A stretch of 8,464 nt of DNA from a virus (taxonomy: Duplodnaviria; Heunggongvirae; Uroviricota; Caudoviricetes). The first letter of the stretch is position 1. Every line of letters begins with the position of its first letter. Shown piece by piece: positions 1-8,464 of the stretch. The stretch lies in the IMG/VR virus record IMGVR_UViG_2667527591_000013; one strand, written 5' to 3'. A program made the position numbers and the translations under genes. The notes below the pieces were generated by a model that did not search any database, was not told the DNA's origin, and saw nothing but the letters and a program-made list of their open reading frames with translations.

Positions 1-99
1 CCTGACGGCGAAATGATGATGTAACCATGCGCAGGGGCTGTCGGTGTGAGCTGATGCCCCTCTTGTTGTTGTGAGCTTCCGGATTGCGGGAGACGGGGT

Positions 100-315
100 A
101 TGTACCAGATGGAAAAAATCACAACAGGTGTGTCATACACCACGTCAGCGGTGGGGACGGGCTACTGGTTCCTGCAGCTGCTGGACAGGGTTTCCCCGTC
201 TCAGTGGGCGGCAATAGGCGTACTGGGAAGTCTGCTGTTTGGGCTGCTGACATATCTGACTAACCTGTATTTCAAAATCAGAGAGGACCGTCGTAAGGCG
301 GCGCGGGGAGAGTAA
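100..315 (+). CDS. Class II holin (pinholin), phage 21 S / EssD-like
   Basis: 71-aa ORF starting ATG at 100 with a G-rich SD-like stretch (GGAGACGGGG) upstream. Translation [71 protein letters not shown] has two short hydrophobic segments and a charged C-terminus, closely resembling phage 21 S and E. coli prophage Ess holins as I recall them. Met1 and Met4 form a dual-start motif. The stop lies 4 nt before the next ORF. Confidence 0.85.
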
Positions 316-319
316 AGCG

Positions 320-664
320 ATGAAGAAAAAATACGAACTGGTTGTTAAAGGGATAAATAATTACCCGAATAAGATTACTGTTACTGTGGCACTGGAAATT
401 GGTGGGTATCCGTCACTGTTGTTGCCAGATGTGGCGATTAGTCTTGACCGTACTGAAGATGCCACGCTGGAGTTTTACGAAGCTGAGGCGAAAAAGCAGG
501 CGAAGCAGTTTTTCATGGATGTTGCTGCCGGGTTATGTGAAGGGGATGGTCCGTTGCCGGAAAAGCGCCCCGTAATTTTAGAGGCGCAGGATGTGTTGAT
601 AACCTACAGAGGAAAACTACCGGGAATAATTACTGGTTCTCTGAAGACTCCACCGCTGGCCTGA
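320..664 (+). CDS. Hypothetical protein in lysis cassette, between holin and endolysin (possibly YdfR/DUF1327-like)
   Basis: 114-aa ORF with GGGGAGAG SD-like sequence 8-9 nt upstream of the ATG at 320, tightly coupled to the holin stop. Its position between holin and lysozyme matches the essQ-ydfR-rrrQ arrangement in E. coli lambdoid prophages. The family name is from positional memory only, not a verified match. Confidence 0.6.
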   Translation: MKKKYELVVKGINNYPNKITVTVALEIGGYPSLLLPDVAISLDRTEDATLEFYEAEAKKQAKQFFMDVAAGLCEGDGPLPEKRPVILEAQDVLITYRGKLPGIITGSLKTPPLA

Positions 665-714
665 AGACTTAACATATCCAGGGATTTGAAATCGATAAAC
701 CCTGATAAATATCC

Positions 715-1752
715 ATGAACACCAAAATCAAATACGGCCTGTCGGCTGCCGTTCTGGCGCTGATTGCCGCAGGTGCGCCTGCGCCTGAAATCCTCGACCA
801 GTTTCTGGATGAAAAGGAAGGTAACCACACCACGGCATACCGTGATGGCGCGGGTATCTGGACCATCTGCCGCGGTGCCATCCTGGTGGATAGTAAACCT
901 GTCGTTCCGGGCATGAAGTTGTCGAAGGAAAAATGCGACCAGGTTAACGCCATTGAGCGTGATAAAGCGCTGGCGTGGGTGGAGAAAAACATCAGAGTGC
1001 CGCTGACCGAACCCCAGAAAGCGGGGATCGCGTCATTCTGTCCGTACAACATTGGTCCCGGTAAGTGTTTCCCGTCGACGTTTTACAGACGAATTAATGC
1101 TGGTGATCGCAGGGGAGCATGCGAGGCGATTCGCTGGTGGATTAAGGACGGTGAGCGGTATTTTTTCTGTAATGAGCTGAATGAAAAAGGGGAGCCGGTC
1201 ACCTGGCAGGGGCGGCAATATCAGGCGTACCCGATTGAGGGGAGTGGCTTTGAGATGAACGGAAAGGGCAGCAGTGCCCGCCCGTCGCTGACGGTGTCCA
1301 ATCTTTTCGGCCTTGTCACCGGAATGGCGGAGGATTTGCAGAGCCTGGTGGGGGCCACGGTGGTCCGCCGCCGGGTGTATGCCCGTTTTCTGGATGCGGT
1401 GAATTTCGTTGCGGGCAATCCGGAAGCGGACCCGGAGCAGGAGCTGAGTGACCGCTGGGTGGTGGAGCAGATGTCGCAGCTGACAGCCATGACGGCCTCG
1501 TTTGTGCTGGCCACACCGACCGAGACGGACGGGGCGCTGTTTCCCGGTCGTATCATGCTGGCGAACACCTGTATGTGGACCTACCGCTCTGATGAGTGTG
1601 GTTACACGGGCGGGGCTGTGGCGGATGAGTTCGATAAACCCACCACGGATATCCGTAAGGACAGATGCAGCAAGTGCATGCGCGGGTGTGAACTGCGCAG
1701 GAATGTCGGCAATTTTGGCGGTTTCCTTTCCATTAATAAACTTTCGCAGTAA
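715..1752 (+). CDS. Chimeric ORF: N-terminal SAR-type GH24 phage lysozyme domain (about nt 715-1152) fused in frame to tail-tip protein L (about nt 1153-1752)
   Basis: Residues 1-146 (MNTKIKYGLSAAVLALIAAGAPAP...GACEAIRWWIKDG) have a Gly/Ala-rich SAR-like N-terminal segment and a T4-lysozyme-type E-x8-D-x5-T catalytic spacing (E35, D44, T50), resembling RrrD/RrrQ/R21 endolysins. Residues 147-345 (ERYFFCNELNEKGEPVTWQGRQYQ...NVGNFGGFLSINKLSQ) align nearly colinearly with lambda L from about its residue 33 to its C-terminus, including the C-terminal cysteines. The lysozyme part lacks the last 20 or so residues of typical endolysins. Confidence 0.8.
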   Translation: MNTKIKYGLSAAVLALIAAGAPAPEILDQFLDEKEGNHTTAYRDGAGIWTICRGAILVDSKPVVPGMKLSKEKCDQVNAIERDKALAWVEKNIRVPLTEPQKAGIASFCPYNIGPGKCFPSTFYRRINAGDRRGACEAIRWWIKDGERYFFCNELNEKGEPVTWQGRQYQAYPIEGSGFEMNGKGSSARPSLTVSNLFGLVTGMAEDLQSLVGATVVRRRVYARFLDAVNFVAGNPEADPEQELSDRWVVEQMSQLTAMTASFVLATPTETDGALFPGRIMLANTCMWTYRSDECGYTGGAVADEFDKPTTDIRKDRCSKCMRGCELRRNVGNFGGFLSINKLSQ

Positions 1753-1757
1753 ATCCC

Positions 1758-2501
1758 ATGACAGAGACAGAATCAGCGATTCTGGCGCATGCCCGGCGGT
1801 GTGCGCCTGCGGAGTCGTGCGGCTTCGTGATAAGCACGCCGGAGGGGGAGCGGTATATCCCTTGTGTGAATATTTCCGCAGAGCCGGAGGCGTATTTTCG
1901 TATCGCACCGGAAGACTGGCTGCGGGCAGAGATGCAGGGGGAGATTGTGGCACTGGTCCACAGTCATCCCGGTGGACTGCCCTGGCTGAGCGAGGCCGAC
2001 CGGCGGCTGCAGATAAAAAGCGCACTGCCCTGGTGGCTGGTCAGCCGGGGTGACATTCACAAATTCCGCTGCGTTCCGCACCTGACGGGACGGCGCTTTG
2101 CGCACGGGGTGACGGACTGTTACACGCTGTTCCGGGATGCATACCATCTGGCAGGCATTGATATGCCGGATTTTCATCGCGGGGATGACTGGTGGTGCAA
2201 CGGTCAGAACCTTTACCTGGACAATATGGAGGCAACGGGCTTTTACCGGGTGCCCCTGTCCTCTGCACTGCCGGGCGATATCCTGCTGTGCTGCTTCGGC
2301 GCATCGGTGGCTAATCATGCCGCCATTTACTGCGGCAACGGTGAGCTGCTTCACCATCTGCCTGAACAGCTGAGTAAACGGGAGAGGTATTCCGAAAAAT
2401 GGCAACGACGAACGCATTCTGTCTGGCGTCACCGCCACTGGCACGCATCTGCCTTCACGGGGATTTACAACGATTTGGCCGCCGCCTCAGCCTGTATGTG
2501 A
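1758..2501 (+). CDS. K: Tail tip assembly protein K (JAMM/MPN plus NlpC/P60 domains)
   Basis: 247-aa ORF starting 5 nt after the L stop. It contains the JAMM motif HSHPGGLPWLSEAD (H-x-H-x7-S-x2-D) and an NlpC/P60-like Cys (GVTDCYTLF) with a downstream His (NHAAIY). It matches lambda K from memory (EIVALVHSHPGGLPWLSEADRRLQ, HKFRCVPHLTGRRF). The true start may be internal. It overlaps I by 103 nt in another frame, as lambda K and I overlap. Confidence 0.9.
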   Translation: MTETESAILAHARRCAPAESCGFVISTPEGERYIPCVNISAEPEAYFRIAPEDWLRAEMQGEIVALVHSHPGGLPWLSEADRRLQIKSALPWWLVSRGDIHKFRCVPHLTGRRFAHGVTDCYTLFRDAYHLAGIDMPDFHRGDDWWCNGQNLYLDNMEATGFYRVPLSSALPGDILLCCFGASVANHAAIYCGNGELLHHLPEQLSKRERYSEKWQRRTHSVWRHRHWHASAFTGIYNDLAAASACM

Positions 2502-3079
2502 ACACGGCAGCGGAAGCCATCCGCGCACTGTCGATGCAGGTGCCGGGCTTTCGCCGTCAGATGAACGAAGGCTGGTACCAGATACGCATTGCCGGTGAGG
2601 ATACGGCACCGGAGGCGGTGTATGCCCGCCTTCACGAACCACTGAGTGAGGGAACGGTTATCCATATTGTGCCGCGACTGGCCGGGGCCGGAAAGGGAGG
2701 ACTGCAGATTGTGCTGGGGGCGGCAGCCATCGTGGGCTCTTTCCTCACTGCCGGTGCCTCGATGGCGTTATGGGGTACAGCCCTGAGTGCCGGCGGTTTT
2801 TCTGCCACCACGATGCTGTTTTCACTGGGGGCCAGCATGATTCTGGGTGGTGTGGCCCAGATGCTGGCCCCGAAGGCAAAAACACCGGATTACCGCGCAA
2901 CGGATAACGGCAGACAGAACACGTATTTTTCGTCACTGGACAACATGATTGCCCAGGGTAACCCGATGCCGGTGCCTTACGGGGAAATGCTGGTTGGCTC
3001 CCGCCGTATATCCCAGGACATCAGTACCCGTGATGAAGGCGGGTGCGGAAAGGTCGTGGTTATCGGGCGGCAGGGGTAA
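2399..3079 (+). CDS. I: Tail tip assembly protein I
   Basis: 226-aa ORF. Motifs ARICLHGDLQRFGRR, GWYQIRIAG, VIHIVPRLAGAGKGG, FSLGASMILGGVAQMLAPKAKTP and NTYFSSLDNMIAQGN parallel lambda I as recalled. The hydrophobic Gly/Ala-rich central segment is typical of this protein. Confidence 0.9.
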   Translation: MATTNAFCLASPPLARICLHGDLQRFGRRLSLYVNTAAEAIRALSMQVPGFRRQMNEGWYQIRIAGEDTAPEAVYARLHEPLSEGTVIHIVPRLAGAGKGGLQIVLGAAAIVGSFLTAGASMALWGTALSAGGFSATTMLFSLGASMILGGVAQMLAPKAKTPDYRATDNGRQNTYFSSLDNMIAQGNPMPVPYGEMLVGSRRISQDISTRDEGGCGKVVVIGRQG

Positions 3080-3085
3080 AAAGAA

Positions 3086-3180
3086 TAAAAAAATCCCGCA
3101 GTGATCGCGGAGCTGCGGGGACAGACAAAGATTAGAGTTAAGGAGTTGTTTTTGTTACTCGGGCAAAAAAACACTAACGC
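3086..3180 (-). ncRNA. Candidate small RNA (about 95 nt), antisense, in the I-J intergenic insert
   Basis: It lies between the candidate promoter and the minus-strand terminator. There is no start codon with an SD on the minus strand in this interval. The predicted RNA contains a second internal hairpin (GTTTTT...AAAAAC) and a CUCCUU stretch. Ends are approximate. Confidence 0.3.
3095..3119 (-). terminator. Intrinsic terminator, minus-strand oriented, immediately after the I stop codon
   Basis: Perfect 7-bp stem CCCGCAG(3095-3101)/CTGCGGG(3113-3119) with an 11-nt loop. On the minus strand the stem is followed by ATTTTTTTATTCTTT (complement of + 3080-3094). On the + strand the downstream sequence is not T-rich. 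Confidence 0.6.
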
Positions 3181-3186
3181 AGCGAA

Positions 3187-3214
3187 ATTATACGCGCCAC
3201 AGTCAGTTTGTGAA
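3187..3214 (-). promoter_or_regulatory. Candidate sigma70 promoter on minus strand (-35 TTCACA, 16-bp spacer, -10 TATAAT)
   Basis: The minus strand reads TTCACA (complement of + 3209-3214), a 16-nt spacer, then consensus TATAAT (complement of + 3187-3192). It points leftward toward the terminator at 3095-3119. Confidence 0.4.
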
Positions 3215-3286
3215 AATGTGAAGATATTCAGAATTTTTATGCCATTACCGGTTTTTACCAACAGGATTATCGGTGGACATGAAAGA

Positions 3287-3322
3287 AAACCCCGGTATCT
3301 GCTGATACCGGGGTTTCTCTTT
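3287..3322. terminator. Bidirectional hairpin terminator in the I-J intergenic insert
   Basis: Perfect 12-bp inverted repeat AAACCCCGGTAT(3287-3298)/ATACCGGGGTTT(3305-3316) with a 6-nt loop CTGCTG. The + strand continues TTTCTCTTT; the minus strand continues TTTTCTTTC. Confidence 0.6.
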
Positions 3323-3419
3323 AGCATGGCAGAAATGTGTTTCATGCTTTTCGGGCGAAGGATATCCGACTTCTGTACGGAATGGCAAGTGGCGGTTAAT
3401 TTATTCAGGGGAAGGCTGT

Positions 3420-6400
3420 ATGGGAAAAGGTGGCGGTAAGGCACACACGCCTCGTGAGGCGAAGGATAATCTCAAATCCACGCAGATGATGAGCGTGATT
3501 GATGCGGTTGGTGAGGGACCGATAGAAGGCCCGGTGAAGGGACTGCAGAGTATCCTGGTGAACAAAACCCCGCTGACGGACACGGACGGTAATCCCGTGA
3601 TACACGGTGTGACGGCGGTCTGGCGCGCCGGGGAGCAGGAGCAGACACCACCGGAAGGCTTTGAGTCCTCCGGAGCTGAAACTGTACTGGGCGTGGAAGT
3701 GACGAAGGCAAAACCGGTGACGCGCACCATTACGTCCGCGAACATTGACCGCCTGCGGGTTACCTTCGGGGTGCAGTCACTGGTGCAGACCACGTCAAAG
3801 GGTGACCGAAACCCGACATCCGTCCGCCTGCTGATTCAGTTACAGCGTAACGGTAACTGGGTGACAGAAAAGGATGTCACCATTAACGGCAAGACCACCT
3901 CGCAGTTTCTGGCGTCGGTGATTCTGGATAATCTGCCTCCCCGTCCTTTTAACATCCGGATGGTCCGGGAGACGGCGGACAGCACCACGGACCAGTTGCA
4001 GAACAGAACACTCTGGTCATCGTACACCGAAATCATCGATGTGAAACAGTGCTACCCGAACACGGCGATTGTGGGGCTGCAGGTGGATGCGGAGCAGTTC
4101 GGTGGTCAGCAGATGACGGTGAACTACCATATCCGCGGTCGCATCATCCAGGTGCCGTCAAACTATGACCCGGAAAAACGCACCTACAGCGGTATCTGGG
4201 ACGGCAGTCTGAAACCGGCATACAGCAACAACCCGGCCTGGTGCCTGTGGGACATGCTGACTCACCCGCGCTACGGGATGGGAAAACGCCTGGGGGCGGC
4301 GGATGTGGACAAGTGGGCGCTGTATGCCATCGGGCAGTACTGCGACCAGACGGTCCCGGATGGTTTCGGGGGCACAGAGCCGCGGATGACCTTTAATGCG
4401 TACCTGGCACAACAGCGTAAGGCGTGGGACGTTCTCAGTGATTTCTGCTCGGCGATGCGCTGTATGCCGGTATGGAACGGCCAGACGCTGACGTTCGTTC
4501 AGGACCGCCAGTCGGATGTGGTGTGGCCGTACACGAACAGCGATGTGGTGGTGGATGATAACGGCGTGGGGTTCCGCTACAGCTTCAGTGCCCTGAAGGA
4601 CCGGCACACGGCGGTGGAGGTGAATTACACCGACCCGCAGAACGGCTGGCAGACCTCCACGGAACTGGTGGAAGACCCGGAAGCCATACTGCGCTACGGA
4701 CGCAACCTGCTGAAGATGGATGCGTTCGGCTGCACCAGTCGCGGTCAGGCCCACCGTGCCGGGCTGTGGGTGATAAAGACAGAACTGCTGGAAACGCAGA
4801 CGGTGGATTTCACACTCGGGTCACAGGGGCTGCGGCACACACCGGGTGACATTATTGAAATCTGTGATAACGACTATGCCGGGACTATGACCGGCGGACG
4901 TATCCTGTCCATTGATGCTGCCACCCGCACCCTGACGCTGGACCGTGAGGTTACCCTGCCGGAGACAGGTACATCGGCGGTGAACCTGATTAACGGCAGC
5001 GGTAAGCCGGTGAGTGTGGACATCACCGCACACCCCGCGCCGGACCGGATACAGGTCAGTACCCTGCCTGATGGTGTGGAGACATACGGTGTGTGGGGAC
5101 TCTCCCTGCCGTCACTGCGCCGTCGCCTGTTCCGCTGTGTCTCCATCCGGGAAAACACGGACGGCACCTTTGCCATCACGGCGGTGCAGCACGTACCGGA
5201 AAAAGAAGCCATTGTGGATAACGGAGCCCGCTTTGAGCCGCAGTCAGGCACCCTGAACAGCGTTATCCCACCGGCAGTACAGCACCTCACGGTGGAGGTG
5301 AGCGCAGCTGACAGCCAGTATCTGGCGCTGGCGAAATGGGACACGCCGAGGGTGGTGAAGGGCGTGCGCTTCAGTCTGCGCCTGACCAGTGGAAGCGATG
5401 AGAACAGCCGCCTGCTGACCACCGCCATCACTGCCGATACGGAGCACCGTTTCAGTGGCCTGCCTCTCGGGGAATACACCCTGACGGTCAGGGCGATAAA
5501 CAGCTACGGCCAGCAGGGCGAACCCGCCACCACCACGTTCCGGATTAACGCACCGGCAGCGCCTGCCGGTGTTGAACTGACGCCGGGGTATTTTCAGATA
5601 ACGGCAGTCCCGAAACTGACCATTTATGACCCGACGGTGCAGTTTGAGTTCTGGTTTTCGGAGGCAAAAATTGCAGACGCCGCACAGGTGGAAACCTCTG
5701 CCCGTTATCTGGGGACCGGCAGTCAGTGGAGTGTCTCCGGTCCGCACATTAAGCCCGGAAAGGATTTCTGGTTTTATGTGCGCAGCGTCAACCTGGTGGG
5801 TAAATCTGCTTTTGTGGAAGCCAGTGGACGGGCGAGCAATGATGCTGCGGGCTATCTGGAACTTTTCCGGGAAAAGATAGGAAAAACGCATCTGGCAGAG
5901 GCGCTGTGGGCAGAGATTGACAACAGTCAGCTGAAGGACGAGATGGCGGAAATGCAGACCACCATCACAGAAACCCGCAATGAAATCACACAGACGGTCA
6001 GTAAAACGCTGGAGGACCAGAGCGCCACCATACAGCAGATACAGCGCGTGCAGAAGGACACAAATGATGACCTTGCTGCACTTTACATGCTGAAGGTACA
6101 GAAAACAAAAAATGGCATACCCTATGTTGCCGGTATTGGAGCGGGGATTGAGGATACTGATGGCCAGCCCCTGAGCAACATACTGCTGCTGGCTGACCGT
6201 ATTGCGATGATTAACCCGGAGGACGGCAACACCACGCCGTTATTTGTGGCGCAGGGGAATCAGTTGTTCATGAACGATGTGTTCCTGAAGCGGCTGTTTG
6301 CGGTGAGTATCACCTCGTCCGGCAATCCCCCTACGTTCTCCCTGACGCCGGAAGGCAGGCTGACGGCCCGTAATGCGGATATCAGCGGACATATCAGTGC

Positions 6401-6950
6401 GAACTCGGGCACGCTGAATAATGTCGTGATAGCGGAGAACTGTACCATCAAAGGTACTCTGAGAGCGGAAAATATCATTGGCGATGTGGTGAAAACGCAC
6501 AATGTCAGTCTTCCTGATCTCAGGGCTGCAGGGGAGCACAGACACGCGACAGAACGAACGGTTACTGTCATTGATGATCAGTCGTTTGACCGGAATATTG
6601 TTATCCCGCCGGTTTTTTATTCCGGTATTATCTACAAAGGAAGTGATGGTGACGGTGCGACCTCAATCTGTACGCTGACGGTGAGTGTGAATGATCGGGT
6701 GGTGTTCAGCAAAACCTCATCCATCGGTACCAGGCGTACGTCAGGGGGATACCCCGTTCAGGAAGACACCATATATCCCGGGTCATCCACTCCGTTCAGC
6801 TATTTCATGAGGATGGCGTCAGGGGGAGGTGATGTCAGGATCAAGTTCCGGATTGAGGTCATCTATTATGGAACTGCACCGGGTTTTATGACCACAGGGA
6901 TACAGATCACAACGATGAAGGCGTCAGCTTCAGGATTTGTGGAAAGTTAA
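3420..6950 (+). CDS. J: Central tail fiber / host specificity protein J (tail tip attachment protein)
   Basis: 1176-aa ORF with GGAAGG SD 6-7 nt upstream of the ATG. It is colinear with lambda J (1132 aa) through the N-terminal and central regions ([22 protein letters not shown]..., [76 protein letters not shown]...NADISG...[14 protein letters not shown]). The last 150 or so residues (from about nt 6496) diverge from lambda's LamB-binding C-terminus. Confidence 0.95.
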
Positions 6951-7271
6951 TCCCGGACGATCGTGATTGCCGGAAGGAGACAAAAACCGCACAGTATGCG
7001 CGGGTGCCTTTGGCTGATGGCCGGAGGGAACACCTGAAAGCCTGATGTGAAAAGGCCCCGAGTCAACTTCAATGTTAACCCGAGGCCCTGATCCGTCTAT
7101 CTTAAGCAAGTGGCAGGTTAGCGCCTCTCCGTAATAAGGAGCAAGTGCTGTGTCGCAAAAACCACCGTGATTTGTATCACTGTAGTGCTCATTATCTGGA
7201 TCACCCACCGTTCACTGTGTGAATTCCGGTTCCGGATAGCACCTTTTTAATCCTGTAAACCACGATTTTTA

Positions 7272-7306
7272 CCGCAGACCGGGAAACCGGCACTGCGGTT
7301 TTTTTT
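7272..7306 (+). terminator. Rho-independent terminator ending 14 nt upstream of the stf-like start codon
   Basis: Stem CCGCAG(7272-7277)/CTGCGG(7293-7298) enclosing an inner CCGG-GAAA-CCGG hairpin, followed by eight T's (7299-7306). Confidence 0.7.
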
Positions 7307-7319
7307 ATGGGGAAAATCT

Positions 7320-8464
7320 ATGACAGTCAGAATATCGGGCGTGCTGAAGGACGGCACCGGGAAGCCGGTACCGGGATGCACCATTGAACTGAAAGCCCTG
7401 CGCACCACGGAGACAGTGATTGTCACCACGGTGGCGCAGGGGCAGCCGGGGGAAACCGGCAGTTACAGTTTTGATGTGGAGCCGGGGTGGTACCGGGTGA
7501 CGCTGAACACGGAAGGGTACGCCCCGTCGTATGTGGGTGACATTCTGGTGAAGGCGGATTCTGAGCCGGGAACGCTGAATAAATTTCTGATGGAACAGGA
7601 TGAGGCGCAGTATTACCCGAAAGCGCTTGCAGAGCTGGAAGCGGTGGCAGCGGAAATCCTGAAGCGTGCTGAAGCGTCGGCGGCGAGTGCAGAGGAAGCG
7701 AAGAAACGGGCAGAGAATGCCCGGGGACCGGCGGGCGAGAAGGGGGACACAGGTCCACAGGGTGCCACAGGGGCAAAGGGACCAGCCGGGGCAACGGGGG
7801 CGGTCGGACCAAAAGGTGAGCCGGGGCCAAAGGGAGAACGGGGAGAAACAGGTCCACAGGGACCGAAGGGCGATAAAGGTGACCCGGGCGGACCGCCGGG
7901 GCCGAAAGGTGACACCGGCCCACGTGGAGAGGCCGGACCACCCGGACCACAGGGTCCGGCAGGGCAAACCGGCCCGAAAGGGGATAAAGGTGAACCCGGC
8001 GCAACAGGTCCGGCAGGTCCCGCAGGCCCTCGGGGAGAAACCGGCCCCGCAGGTCCTGCGGGTCCCGCAGGCAGTGTCGCCAGTGTTCCGGATGCCAGCA
8101 CATCACAGAAAGGTGTTGTACAGCTGAGCAGCGATACCAACAGCGATGATGAAACAAAAGCGGCAACCCCAAAGGCTGTGAAAGCGGTAATGGCAGAAGT
8201 GCAGGCAGCAAAAACGAAGGCAGAAGAGGCAGCAACCCGGGCAGCAGTCCCCGGACCGAAGGGGGACAGGGGGGAACCTGGCGCACCTGGTGCAGTGGGG
8301 CCAGCAGGCCCACGGGGACCGGCTGGTGCAGCTGGTCCCAAAGGTGATGCAGGCCCGGCAGGCCCCGCAGGAAAGGATGGTACCGCCGGAGCGGAAGGTA
8401 AGGCAGGTCCGGCAGGGCCACGAGGTGAAAGGGGACCAGCGGGGGCACAGGGTGTTCCGGGGCC
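7320..8464 (+). CDS. Side tail fiber protein (Stf-like) with collagen-like Gly-X-Y repeats; 5' partial, runs off the window end
   Basis: ATG at 7320 with GGGGA SD 6 nt upstream. The open frame reaches the window end without a stop, so it is absent from the supplied ORF track. The N-terminus [26 protein letters not shown] parallels lambda Stf ([17 protein letters not shown]...). The conserved motif [30 protein letters not shown] is present, flanked by two Gly-X-Y blocks. Confidence 0.85.
7725..8072 (+). repeat. Collagen-like Gly-X-Y triplet repeat block 1 within the stf-like gene
   Basis: About 37 consecutive G-X-Y triplets ([19 protein letters not shown]...[10 protein letters not shown]) with a single one-residue interruption at [10 protein letters not shown]. 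The DNA shows a 9-bp periodicity of GGN-CCN-NNN. Confidence 0.85.
8253..8464 (+). repeat. Collagen-like Gly-X-Y triplet repeat block 2 within the stf-like gene (continues past window end)
   Basis: [70 protein letters not shown], uninterrupted to the window end. Confidence 0.85.

Follow-up and report, generated by a model that had tools for sequence, protein, structure and literature searches.

Two lambdoid remnants of E. coli K-12, DLP12 and Qin, have lost their head and tail-shaft block through internal deletion. They keep Q, the holin gene, (ydfR), the lysozyme gene and Rz, and their late-region genes abut tail-fibre genes, with nohD/aaaD leading into tfaD in DLP12 and nohA into stfQ in Qin. 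Prophages of the same family as the locus described here occur in E. coli CEA601S and JNEC-KY204, where holin, YdfR and lysozyme genes lie upstream and L-K-I-(PasB gap)-J downstream, with none of the intervening morphogenesis genes left. As these four are independent analogues, deletion remnants of this sort are a well-known kind.

The DNA analysed here (the window) is the entire 8,464-bp contig CCCK01002554.1 (GCA_000944435.1). Q, pR', int and att, if present, would fall beyond the contig ends, and two sister contigs that share its junction extend upstream by just 1.2 kb, of phage DNA. As in cryptic lambdoid prophages, the late genes follow the canonical lambdoid order and orientation (holin, YdfR, R', 'L, K, I, J, stf; plus strand throughout), in a region that is 93-97% identical to, and collinear with, lambdoid prophages and phages, while essential morphogenesis genes are absent and the genes at the junction are truncated. 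We are highly confident that the element is an ordinary lambda-like prophage of E. coli/Shigella made defective by a deletion of ~15 kb, which joined the lysozyme gene in frame to L. Its features are as follows.

100..315, plus strand: class II (S21-type) holin, 71 aa, intact (PF04971, P21 holin S, 112.5 bits, profile 1-63 of 64)
320..664, plus strand: YdfR/DUF1327 family gene, 114 aa (PF07041, 153 bits)
715..1752, plus strand: in-frame fusion ORF, 345 aa, joining SAR-type lysozyme residues 1-146 (of 177) to gpL residues 34-232 (Pfam, alignments)
1145..1153, plus strand: deletion junction with microhomology of 5-9 bp, AGGACGGTG (alignment to both parent genes; BLAST ends)
1758..2501, plus strand: tail tip assembly protein K (JAB/MPN, Prok-JAB + NlpC/P60), 247 aa, intact (Pfam; length as in relatives)
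2498..3079, plus strand: tail assembly protein I, 193 aa, GTG start, 4-bp overlap with the K stop (PF06805)
3087..3165, minus strand: homologue of the PasB sRNA gene, running convergently to the tail genes (identity of 90.4% with E2348/69 PasB over its full 83 nt)
3420..6950, plus strand: tip attachment/host specificity protein J, 1176 aa, intact (six gpJ Pfam domains)
7002..7250, plus strand: degenerate hok/sok-like module in place of lom (RF01794, HOK_GEF)
7320..8464, plus strand: side tail fibre gene stf, running off the contig end (PF08400, PF01391, PF03406: N-terminal domain, collagen-like repeats and fibre repeat)

The sequence-only reading had described the genes from holin to I as contiguous, co-oriented and tightly packed, with lysis genes directly upstream of tail-tip genes. 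The spacers bear this out (4 bp between holin and YdfR, 50 bp before the fusion ORF and 5 bp before K, with K and I overlapping by 4 bp), as do the ORFs and Pfam matches, which revealed no head, tube or tape-measure gene between the lysis and tail-tip genes in the window. The close spacing extends through position 3079 but not beyond: a 340-bp gap of 43% GC (3080-3419) separates I from J and houses the opposite-strand PasB homologue, and a further 369 bp separate J from stf.

The 345-aa ORF marks the junction, and both of its parents are truncated. On the lysozyme side, PF00959 (Phage_lysozyme) covers fusion residues 33-147 but only positions 2-112 of 125 in the profile, so the domain is incomplete; the C-terminal 31 residues are gone and gpL sequence stands in their place, as the earlier description of a truncated lysozyme had it. 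The Glu-8aa-Asp-5aa-Thr triad is retained (E35, D44, T50), the N-terminus carries a Gly/Ala-rich, SAR-like segment (YGLSAAVLALIAAGAPAP), and this part aligns with the R21/RrrD structures 3HDE and 4ZPU. On the tail side, PF05100 (Phage_tail_L) spans fusion residues 146-343, and residues 32-232 of lambda gpL (8IYK_L) align to fusion residues 145-345; codons 1-33 of gpL are deleted, leaving it short of full length. The C-terminal cysteine cluster is preserved, with cysteines 173, 182, 205, 208 and 212 matching identical residues in 8IYK_L; the corresponding cysteines of gpL bind an Fe-S cluster, a putative role here.

In alignment, the window tracks the intact lysozyme gene to ...ATTAAGGACGGTG and then intact L from ...GGCGGTGAGCGG. 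The nine bases at the join are exact in the lysozyme parent and match at 8 of 9 positions (AGGGCGGTG) in the L allele compared, with CGGTG exact in both. In BLAST, lysozyme-side matches stop at 1153, and those on the L side start at 1145 or 1150 across thousands of genomes. The GC content rises across the junction: it is 51% to the left and 59% to the right.

The best DNA matches, an intact prophage of NCTC9112 and phages PhiR5_1 and PhiR12, are 93-97% identical over the stretch that starts at the L breakpoint and includes K, I, J and stf, and J of the NCTC9112 prophage is equal in length to that of the window. Unlike the window, these relatives have full-length R and L and a complete Rz-to-M block. 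In the stretch of NCTC9112 compared (lysozyme at 4438-4971, L at 19910-20608) the equivalent breakpoints lie 15.1 kb apart and enclose a full lambda-type set that includes Rz, terminase, portal, capsid, tube, tape measure and M. This argues for a microhomology-mediated internal deletion rather than an unusual gene order, and the proposal of a defective prophage is thereby upheld. Because L lacks its first 33 residues and R its last 31, the converse case, a normal and complete phage with its genes in an odd order, fails.

We infer that a single illegitimate recombination event, using the microhomology of 5-9 bp, fused codon ~146 of R, a SAR-type endolysin gene, to codon ~34 of L. It would have removed ~15 kb from the late region of a lambdoid prophage, or more if the parental head genes were longer: the 3' end of R, Rz/Rz1, cos, terminase, portal, protease, capsid and head-tail connectors, together with the tube, G/T chaperones, tape measure, M and the 5' end of L. 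Both parts of the fusion keep the same orientation, which points to deletion or unequal crossover and excludes an inversion. After such an event the element would make neither particles nor a complete lysis apparatus, with holin and YdfR the only survivors of the lysis cassette, and K, I, J and stf, now directly downstream of the holin, would share one Q-dependent late transcript. The fusion itself is best read as a pseudogene product, since both parents are truncated even though the reading frame is kept; an intact start and catalytic triad in frame leave room for a translated product. The ORF should accordingly be annotated as a lysozyme/L fusion pseudogene, neither lysozyme nor tail protein, and the element marked as a deletion derivative. 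Outside annotation its importance is slight.

Among the surviving lysis genes, the holin, whose relatives are annotated 'class II holin family protein', had been called a pinholin. Its sequence features support a putative S21-type pinholin: the PF04971 match is full-length, the dual-start motif has both M1 and M4, and the partner lysozyme is SAR-like. The first transmembrane domain is weakly hydrophobic (residues ~8-28, Gly/Ser/Thr-rich) and SAR-like, and the second is strongly hydrophobic, with a Kyte-Doolittle mean above 1.0 at residues ~31-60 only, on inspection of the sequence. The YdfR gene sits between holin and lysozyme, the position of ydfR in Qin.

The exact fusion protein occurs on three contigs from three draft assemblies (GCA_000944435.1, GCA_001373195.1 and GCA_000936715.1), all of them fragmented and short-read. 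It was not found in 5,426 complete E. coli genomes, in GTDB representative genomes or in metagenome contigs; an IMG/VR search for further carriers returned only a copy of one sister contig. The protein cluster of the fusion yielded only names of partial lysozymes, from E. coli and Shigella flexneri. One apparent carrier, E. coli SRCC 1675, was rejected as non-collinear, since there a 5' fragment of L precedes a complete lysozyme that lies at the end of the record. The three carrier contigs are 100% identical across window positions 236-1756, 1.5 kb around the junction. We consider the deletion recent because there is not one base difference in this 1.5 kb and no disruptive mutation in the ~5 kb of tail genes.

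Differences among the three contigs are clustered at 54-235, 1757-2369, 4844-4977, 5183-5507, 5525-5624 and 5969-6055, in holin, K and J, and one of the patches in a sister contig matches the J allele of NCTC9112 at 100% identity. This pattern fits a single recent deletion, after which patches were exchanged with other prophages. Some of the K/J clusters could instead be consensus chimeras of paralogous prophage copies within a genome rather than real recombination. The K/J patches are the sole local hint at a possible reservoir role for host-range determinants. An identical junction with mosaic flanks in three strains offers a dated before-and-after picture, and a clean case of prophage decay through a single microhomology-mediated deletion.

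Two features of the locus lack annotation: the PasB gene between I and J, and a decayed hok/sok module at the lom position. PasB is an expressed, Hfq-dependent transcript in E2348/69, the one strain for which this has been demonstrated (PMC8550237). There its gene lies between a tail assembly protein gene and gpJ, the same place as in the window, antisense to the tail operon. A predicted promoter (TTCACA-16-TATAAT, 3214->3187) and a predicted terminator hairpin (3111->3095, followed by U7) are both conserved, and the published Northern probe matches exactly at 3092-3114. The window therefore carries a PasB sRNA gene homologue, whose expression is predicted from the conserved promoter and terminator. 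The gene is present in ~30% of complete E. coli genomes and was annotated in none of 15 sampled records. An AgvB-like anti-sRNA had been considered for this gap because of a CA-rich stretch (AACAAAAACAAC), but the site of AgvB is the pR' moron (PMC4104026) and the gap holds PasB instead; in the window, Rfam gave no match to AgvB, AsxR or Esr41 at E <= 1. Holin/lysozyme operons are reported to have Pas genes at their flanks. A BLAST search for PasA beside the holin found none in either the window or its sister contigs.

The module after J consists of a segment resembling the leader of hok mRNA (7002-7161) and a truncated Hok frame (7137-7250), and is 100% identical to the NCTC9112 prophage, whose whole J-stf gap is the same as that of the window. 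Its match to Rfam RF01794 (sok) scores 32.5 bits, below the gathering score of 59. The Pfam HOK_GEF match, at 25.7 bits against a cut-off of 22, covers only positions 8-30 of 42 in the profile, so no complete Hok frame is present; the frame has no ATG and runs for 27 aa from a GTG to its end at 7250.

A reservoir role for host-range determinants is established for defective remnants generally, lambda acquiring stf/tfa DNA from Rac and Qin at ~2x10^-6 (PMC3945230), and by analogy may extend to this one. A fuller version would have the remnant kept for PasB and possibly the hok-like module, with K-I-J-stf, behind a holin driven by the late promoter, swapping patches with lambdoid phages, co-resident or infecting, and serving as a host-range cassette donor; as a whole we think this unlikely. 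A related proposal is that the remnant persists through host-useful or addictive cargo (PasB, the hok/sok-like module), while gene conversion with co-resident prophages keeps its tail-tip genes intact and hands them on to those prophages. The conserved promoter and terminator of the PasB homologue, the patchy K/J allele differences and the uptake by lambda of DNA from defective prophages (PMC3945230) speak for it. So does a report that PasB lies outside recognisable prophages more often than other Pas sRNAs, which the authors interpret as a sign that neighbouring phage genes have decayed (bioRxiv 10.64898/2026.05.13.724894). The Hok frame, however, is truncated and without an ATG, and the sok match is under the Rfam threshold. 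The same PasB and hok segments are also found in prophages that appear complete, so nothing special is required to explain them here, and zero divergence at the junction leaves too little time for selection to show. We therefore regard retention through cargo as improbable.

The junction might also be an assembly artefact, the lysis region of one prophage mis-joined to the tail region of another in a repeat-rich draft genome, with no real R::L. The strong fragmentation of the source assemblies (contig numbers go above 2,300) and the recurrence of lambdoid K/I/J sequences, at a median of 3 places in each E. coli genome, point that way, as does the fact that the junction is in no complete genome. 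Nevertheless, the sequence shared at the join is just 5-9 bp, well under any assembler k-mer, and an overlap of 9 bp is too short for a k-mer assembler to be likely to mis-join. Three separate assemblies have an identical 1.5-kb junction region with differing flanking alleles, and real junctions of the same type exist in the complete long-read genomes of CEA601S and JNEC-KY204, making an artefact very unlikely. A domesticated tail machine, that is, an F-type tailocin-like cluster whose lysis cassette drives the tail genes directly without head genes, is hardly credible: the layout is that of pyocin clusters, the L part matches the F2-pyocin baseplate-hub chain 25vf_7 (E = 1.4e-36) and K, I, J and stf (to the contig end) are intact, but the tail set is incomplete, with genes for tube, tape measure, G/T, M, U and Z all missing between the lysis part and L, while L is without residues 1-33, the lysozyme is cut short, the spanins are gone, the junction is restricted to three assemblies, and zero divergence around it indicates a recent accident rather than a maintained system.

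An ordinary lambdoid prophage reduced by internal deletion thus remains our reading, and the locus can be set against its known counterparts in those terms. It resembles the lysis system of phage 21 (S21 pinholin and R21 SAR endolysin) in its full-length PF04971 holin, the SAR-like N-terminus of its lysozyme and residues E35/D44/T50; it differs in that the endolysin is fused to gpL and lacks 31 C-terminal residues, the spanin genes are deleted, and a DUF1327 gene lies between holin and lysozyme. CEA601S and JNEC-KY204 arose through independent events, neither with an R::L fusion: CEA601S joins the first 186 nt of Rz to the last 147 nt of L, whereas JNEC-KY204 has Rz and a full L with gene fragments and IS1 between them. 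The essQ-ydfR-rrrQ order of Qin is the holin-YdfR-lysozyme order of the window, but the breakpoints differ. In DLP12 and Qin the left breakpoint is in nu1/A, so that the lysis cassette is complete, and the right one is in stf/tfa, so that L, K, I and J are gone. In the window the breakpoints lie inside R and inside L; the lysis cassette is therefore broken, and the K-I-J-stf set survives whole.

The window is represented in full by CCCK01002554.1 (assembly GCA_000944435.1), a complete contig of 8,464 bp on which every gene from the holin to the side tail fibre gene lies on the + strand. ORF coordinates and Pfam matches bore out the sequence-only description of 100-3079, in which lysis genes directly precede tail-tip genes, including its spacer lengths.

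Genes of the window
100-315, + strand, holin, 71 aa; full-length Pfam 'P21 holin S' match (112.5 bits)
320-664, + strand, DUF1327/YdfR protein, 114 aa; 4-bp spacer before
715-1752, + strand, lysozyme::L fusion ORF, 345 aa; 50-bp spacer before
1758-2501, + strand, K (JAB + NlpC/P60); 5-bp spacer before
2498-3079, + strand, I; GTG start, overlaps the K stop
3420-6950, + strand, J, 1176 aa, six gpJ domains; 340-bp gap before
7320 to contig end, + strand, side tail fibre gene (stf), collagen-like repeats; 369-bp gap before

Upstream of the holin, window 1-99 holds the 3' end of a DUF826 gene and a GC-rich hairpin (GCAGGGGC...GCCCCTC), followed by TTGTTGTTGT. The sRNA genes PasA, PasC and PasD1 have been reported beside holin/lysozyme operons; PasA gave no BLAST match in window 1-99. 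Two sister contigs from other assemblies, L005 and L006, add only 1.2 kb of upstream DNA, in which DUF6645 and DUF826 genes are normal late-region context.

The fusion ORF marks a deletion junction. Pfam Phage_lysozyme matches residues 33-147, reaching only profile positions 2-112 of 125, and Phage_tail_L matches residues 146-343. Against solved structures, the R21/RrrD lysozymes 3HDE and 4ZPU align to residues 30-148, and lambda gpL residues 32-232 (8IYK_L) to residues 145-345 (E = 7e-112). We mapped the crossover by aligning the window's DNA to the 3' end of an intact lysozyme gene and the 5' end of an intact L: the window tracks the lysozyme parent up to ...TGGATTAAGGACGGTG and the L parent from ...GGCGGTGAGCGGTATTTT, and the stretch common to both is AGGACGGTG (1145-1153), which matches at 8 of 9 positions in the L allele used for comparison, the last five bases being shared exactly. 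BLAST placed the same limits, with lysozyme-side matches stopping at 1153 and L-side matches, from thousands of genomes, beginning at 1145 or 1150; GC content rises at the join, from 51% to 59%. The reading frame is preserved, lysozyme residues 1-146 of 177 being followed by L residues 34-232. On the lysozyme side, a Gly/Ala-rich N-terminal SAR-like segment and E35/D44/T50 are kept and the last 31 residues are missing; on the L side, the first 33 are missing and the C-terminal cysteines are kept. These data support and sharpen the earlier interpretation, a defective prophage keeping its tail-tip genes beside a truncated lysozyme, in that the fusion ORF is itself the junction and both of its parent genes are truncated.

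Illegitimate recombination is the probable deletion step, as suggested by the short microhomology. Because both halves of the fusion share one orientation, the event was a deletion or unequal crossover; inversion was ruled out on the same ground. That assembly itself created the junction is unlikely, given an overlap of just 5-9 bp and the agreement of three assemblies whose flanks differ.

Among complete relatives, the closest is a prophage of E. coli NCTC9112, 96.8% identical from L onward, which allowed the synteny comparison with an intact lambdoid prophage. In its locus (L007) the lysozyme gene lies at 4438-4971 and L at 19910-20608, and a full morphogenesis set intervenes: Rz; the small and large terminase subunits; portal, protease, decoration, capsid and head-tail joining proteins; and U, the tube protein, G, T, tape measure and M. 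Measured between the corresponding breakpoints, the interval spans 15.1 kb.

Three contigs, each from a different assembly (GCA_000944435.1, GCA_001373195.1 and GCA_000936715.1), carry the identical 345-aa sequence, one contig being filed in IMG/VR too. The junction was found in none of 5,426 complete E. coli genomes, nor among GTDB representative genomes or metagenome contigs. The three contigs show zero differences across window 236-1756. Elsewhere their differences are tightly clustered, in patches at 54-235 (holin 5' end), 1757-2369 (K, in L006 only) and, within J, 4844-4977, 5183-5507, 5525-5624 and 5969-6055. L006 also differs from the window by a 5-bp indel in the L-K spacer, and one of its J patches is 100% the NCTC9112 allele, from which the window departs at 21 of 121 positions. 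Most simply, the three strains would have inherited a single recent deletion, and short tracts would then have been swapped with other lambdoid prophages. The patches could represent such prophage gene conversion or short-read consensus chimerism, as merging paralogous prophage copies into one consensus could yield similar patterns. Recency would also explain why some 5 kb of K, I and J carries no disruptive mutation.

A roughly reciprocal-looking arrangement was observed in an O157-type prophage of E. coli SRCC 1675 (NZ_CP015023.1; L002, 11910-12903), where the 5' part of L, missing its C-terminus, runs directly into a complete lysozyme gene, right where the circular record ends. Its breakpoints are unlike those of the window, and it could reflect inter-prophage recombination or an assembly/closure artefact.

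With this gene content the element would be unable to build a virion or tail. The lysis cassette is also probably broken, its endolysin truncated and its spanin genes absent, which would leave the holin and YdfR as the only intact survivors. K, I, J and stf are placed directly behind the holin; should Q and pR' survive upstream, beyond the contig, these genes would form one late message. A selected function of the fusion protein found no support, and the element fails as a tailocin, since tube, tape-measure and chaperone genes are missing and both L and lysozyme are truncated.

The I-J gap (3080-3419) carries a putative sRNA gene, convergent with the tail genes and on the opposite strand.

Features of the I-J gap
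3214->3187, - strand, strong sigma70-like promoter TTCACA-16-TATAAT, conserved
3087-3165, - strand, PasB homologue, 90.4% identity over all 83 nt of EPEC E2348/69 PasB
3111->3095, - strand, terminator + U7

PasB, an Hfq-dependent sRNA, was validated by Northern blotting in EPEC E2348/69 (PMC8550237 Table S6), whose prophage PP6 has it between I and J; the published probe matches the window exactly at 3092-3114. Of 5,426 complete E. coli genomes, 1,649 contain the segment, which lacked annotation in all 15 records sampled across the ranking. Among relatives, the variable part is the RNA body between promoter and terminator. Upstream of J, a perfect 14-bp-stem hairpin readable on both strands (3286-3317; AAAACCCCGGTATC TGCT GATACCGGGGTTTC) is shared by four of five aligned relatives and missing from NCTC9112, whose gap is shorter; it may be a bidirectional terminator insulating PasB from J.

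The J-stf gap (6951-7319) contains a decayed hok/sok-like module at the lom position of relatives. An Rfam sok/hok-leader match at 7002-7161 scores 32.5 bits where the gathering score is 59, and a Hok frame that is truncated and has no ATG (7137-7250) matches HOK_GEF positions 8-30 of 42 at 25.7 bits. A hairpin followed by T8 (~7277-7308) lies immediately 5' of stf. The gap is 100% identical to its counterpart in the NCTC9112 prophage, which is apparently complete and has a 21-aa 'hypothetical protein' annotated there.

A reservoir role is established for defective prophages in general and by analogy may extend to this one: lambda takes up stf/tfa DNA from Rac and Qin at ~2x10^-6, and DLP12 DNA about a hundred-fold more frequently (PMC3945230), and new phages arise by recombination of defective O157 prophages (PMC2669165). 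The element adds one more example to a well-known class, formed by a familiar decay route of lambdoid prophages. In K-12, DLP12 keeps quuD-essD-rrrD-rzpD and then jumps from nohD/aaaD to tfaD, and Qin keeps essQ-ydfR-rrrQ-rzpQ and then jumps from nohA to stfQ; within the window's own prophage family, CEA601S has an Rz::L junction and JNEC-KY204 an Rz-L gap linked to IS1. Only the breakpoints differ, and those of the window element are such that the lysis cassette is broken whereas the whole tail-tip set is preserved.
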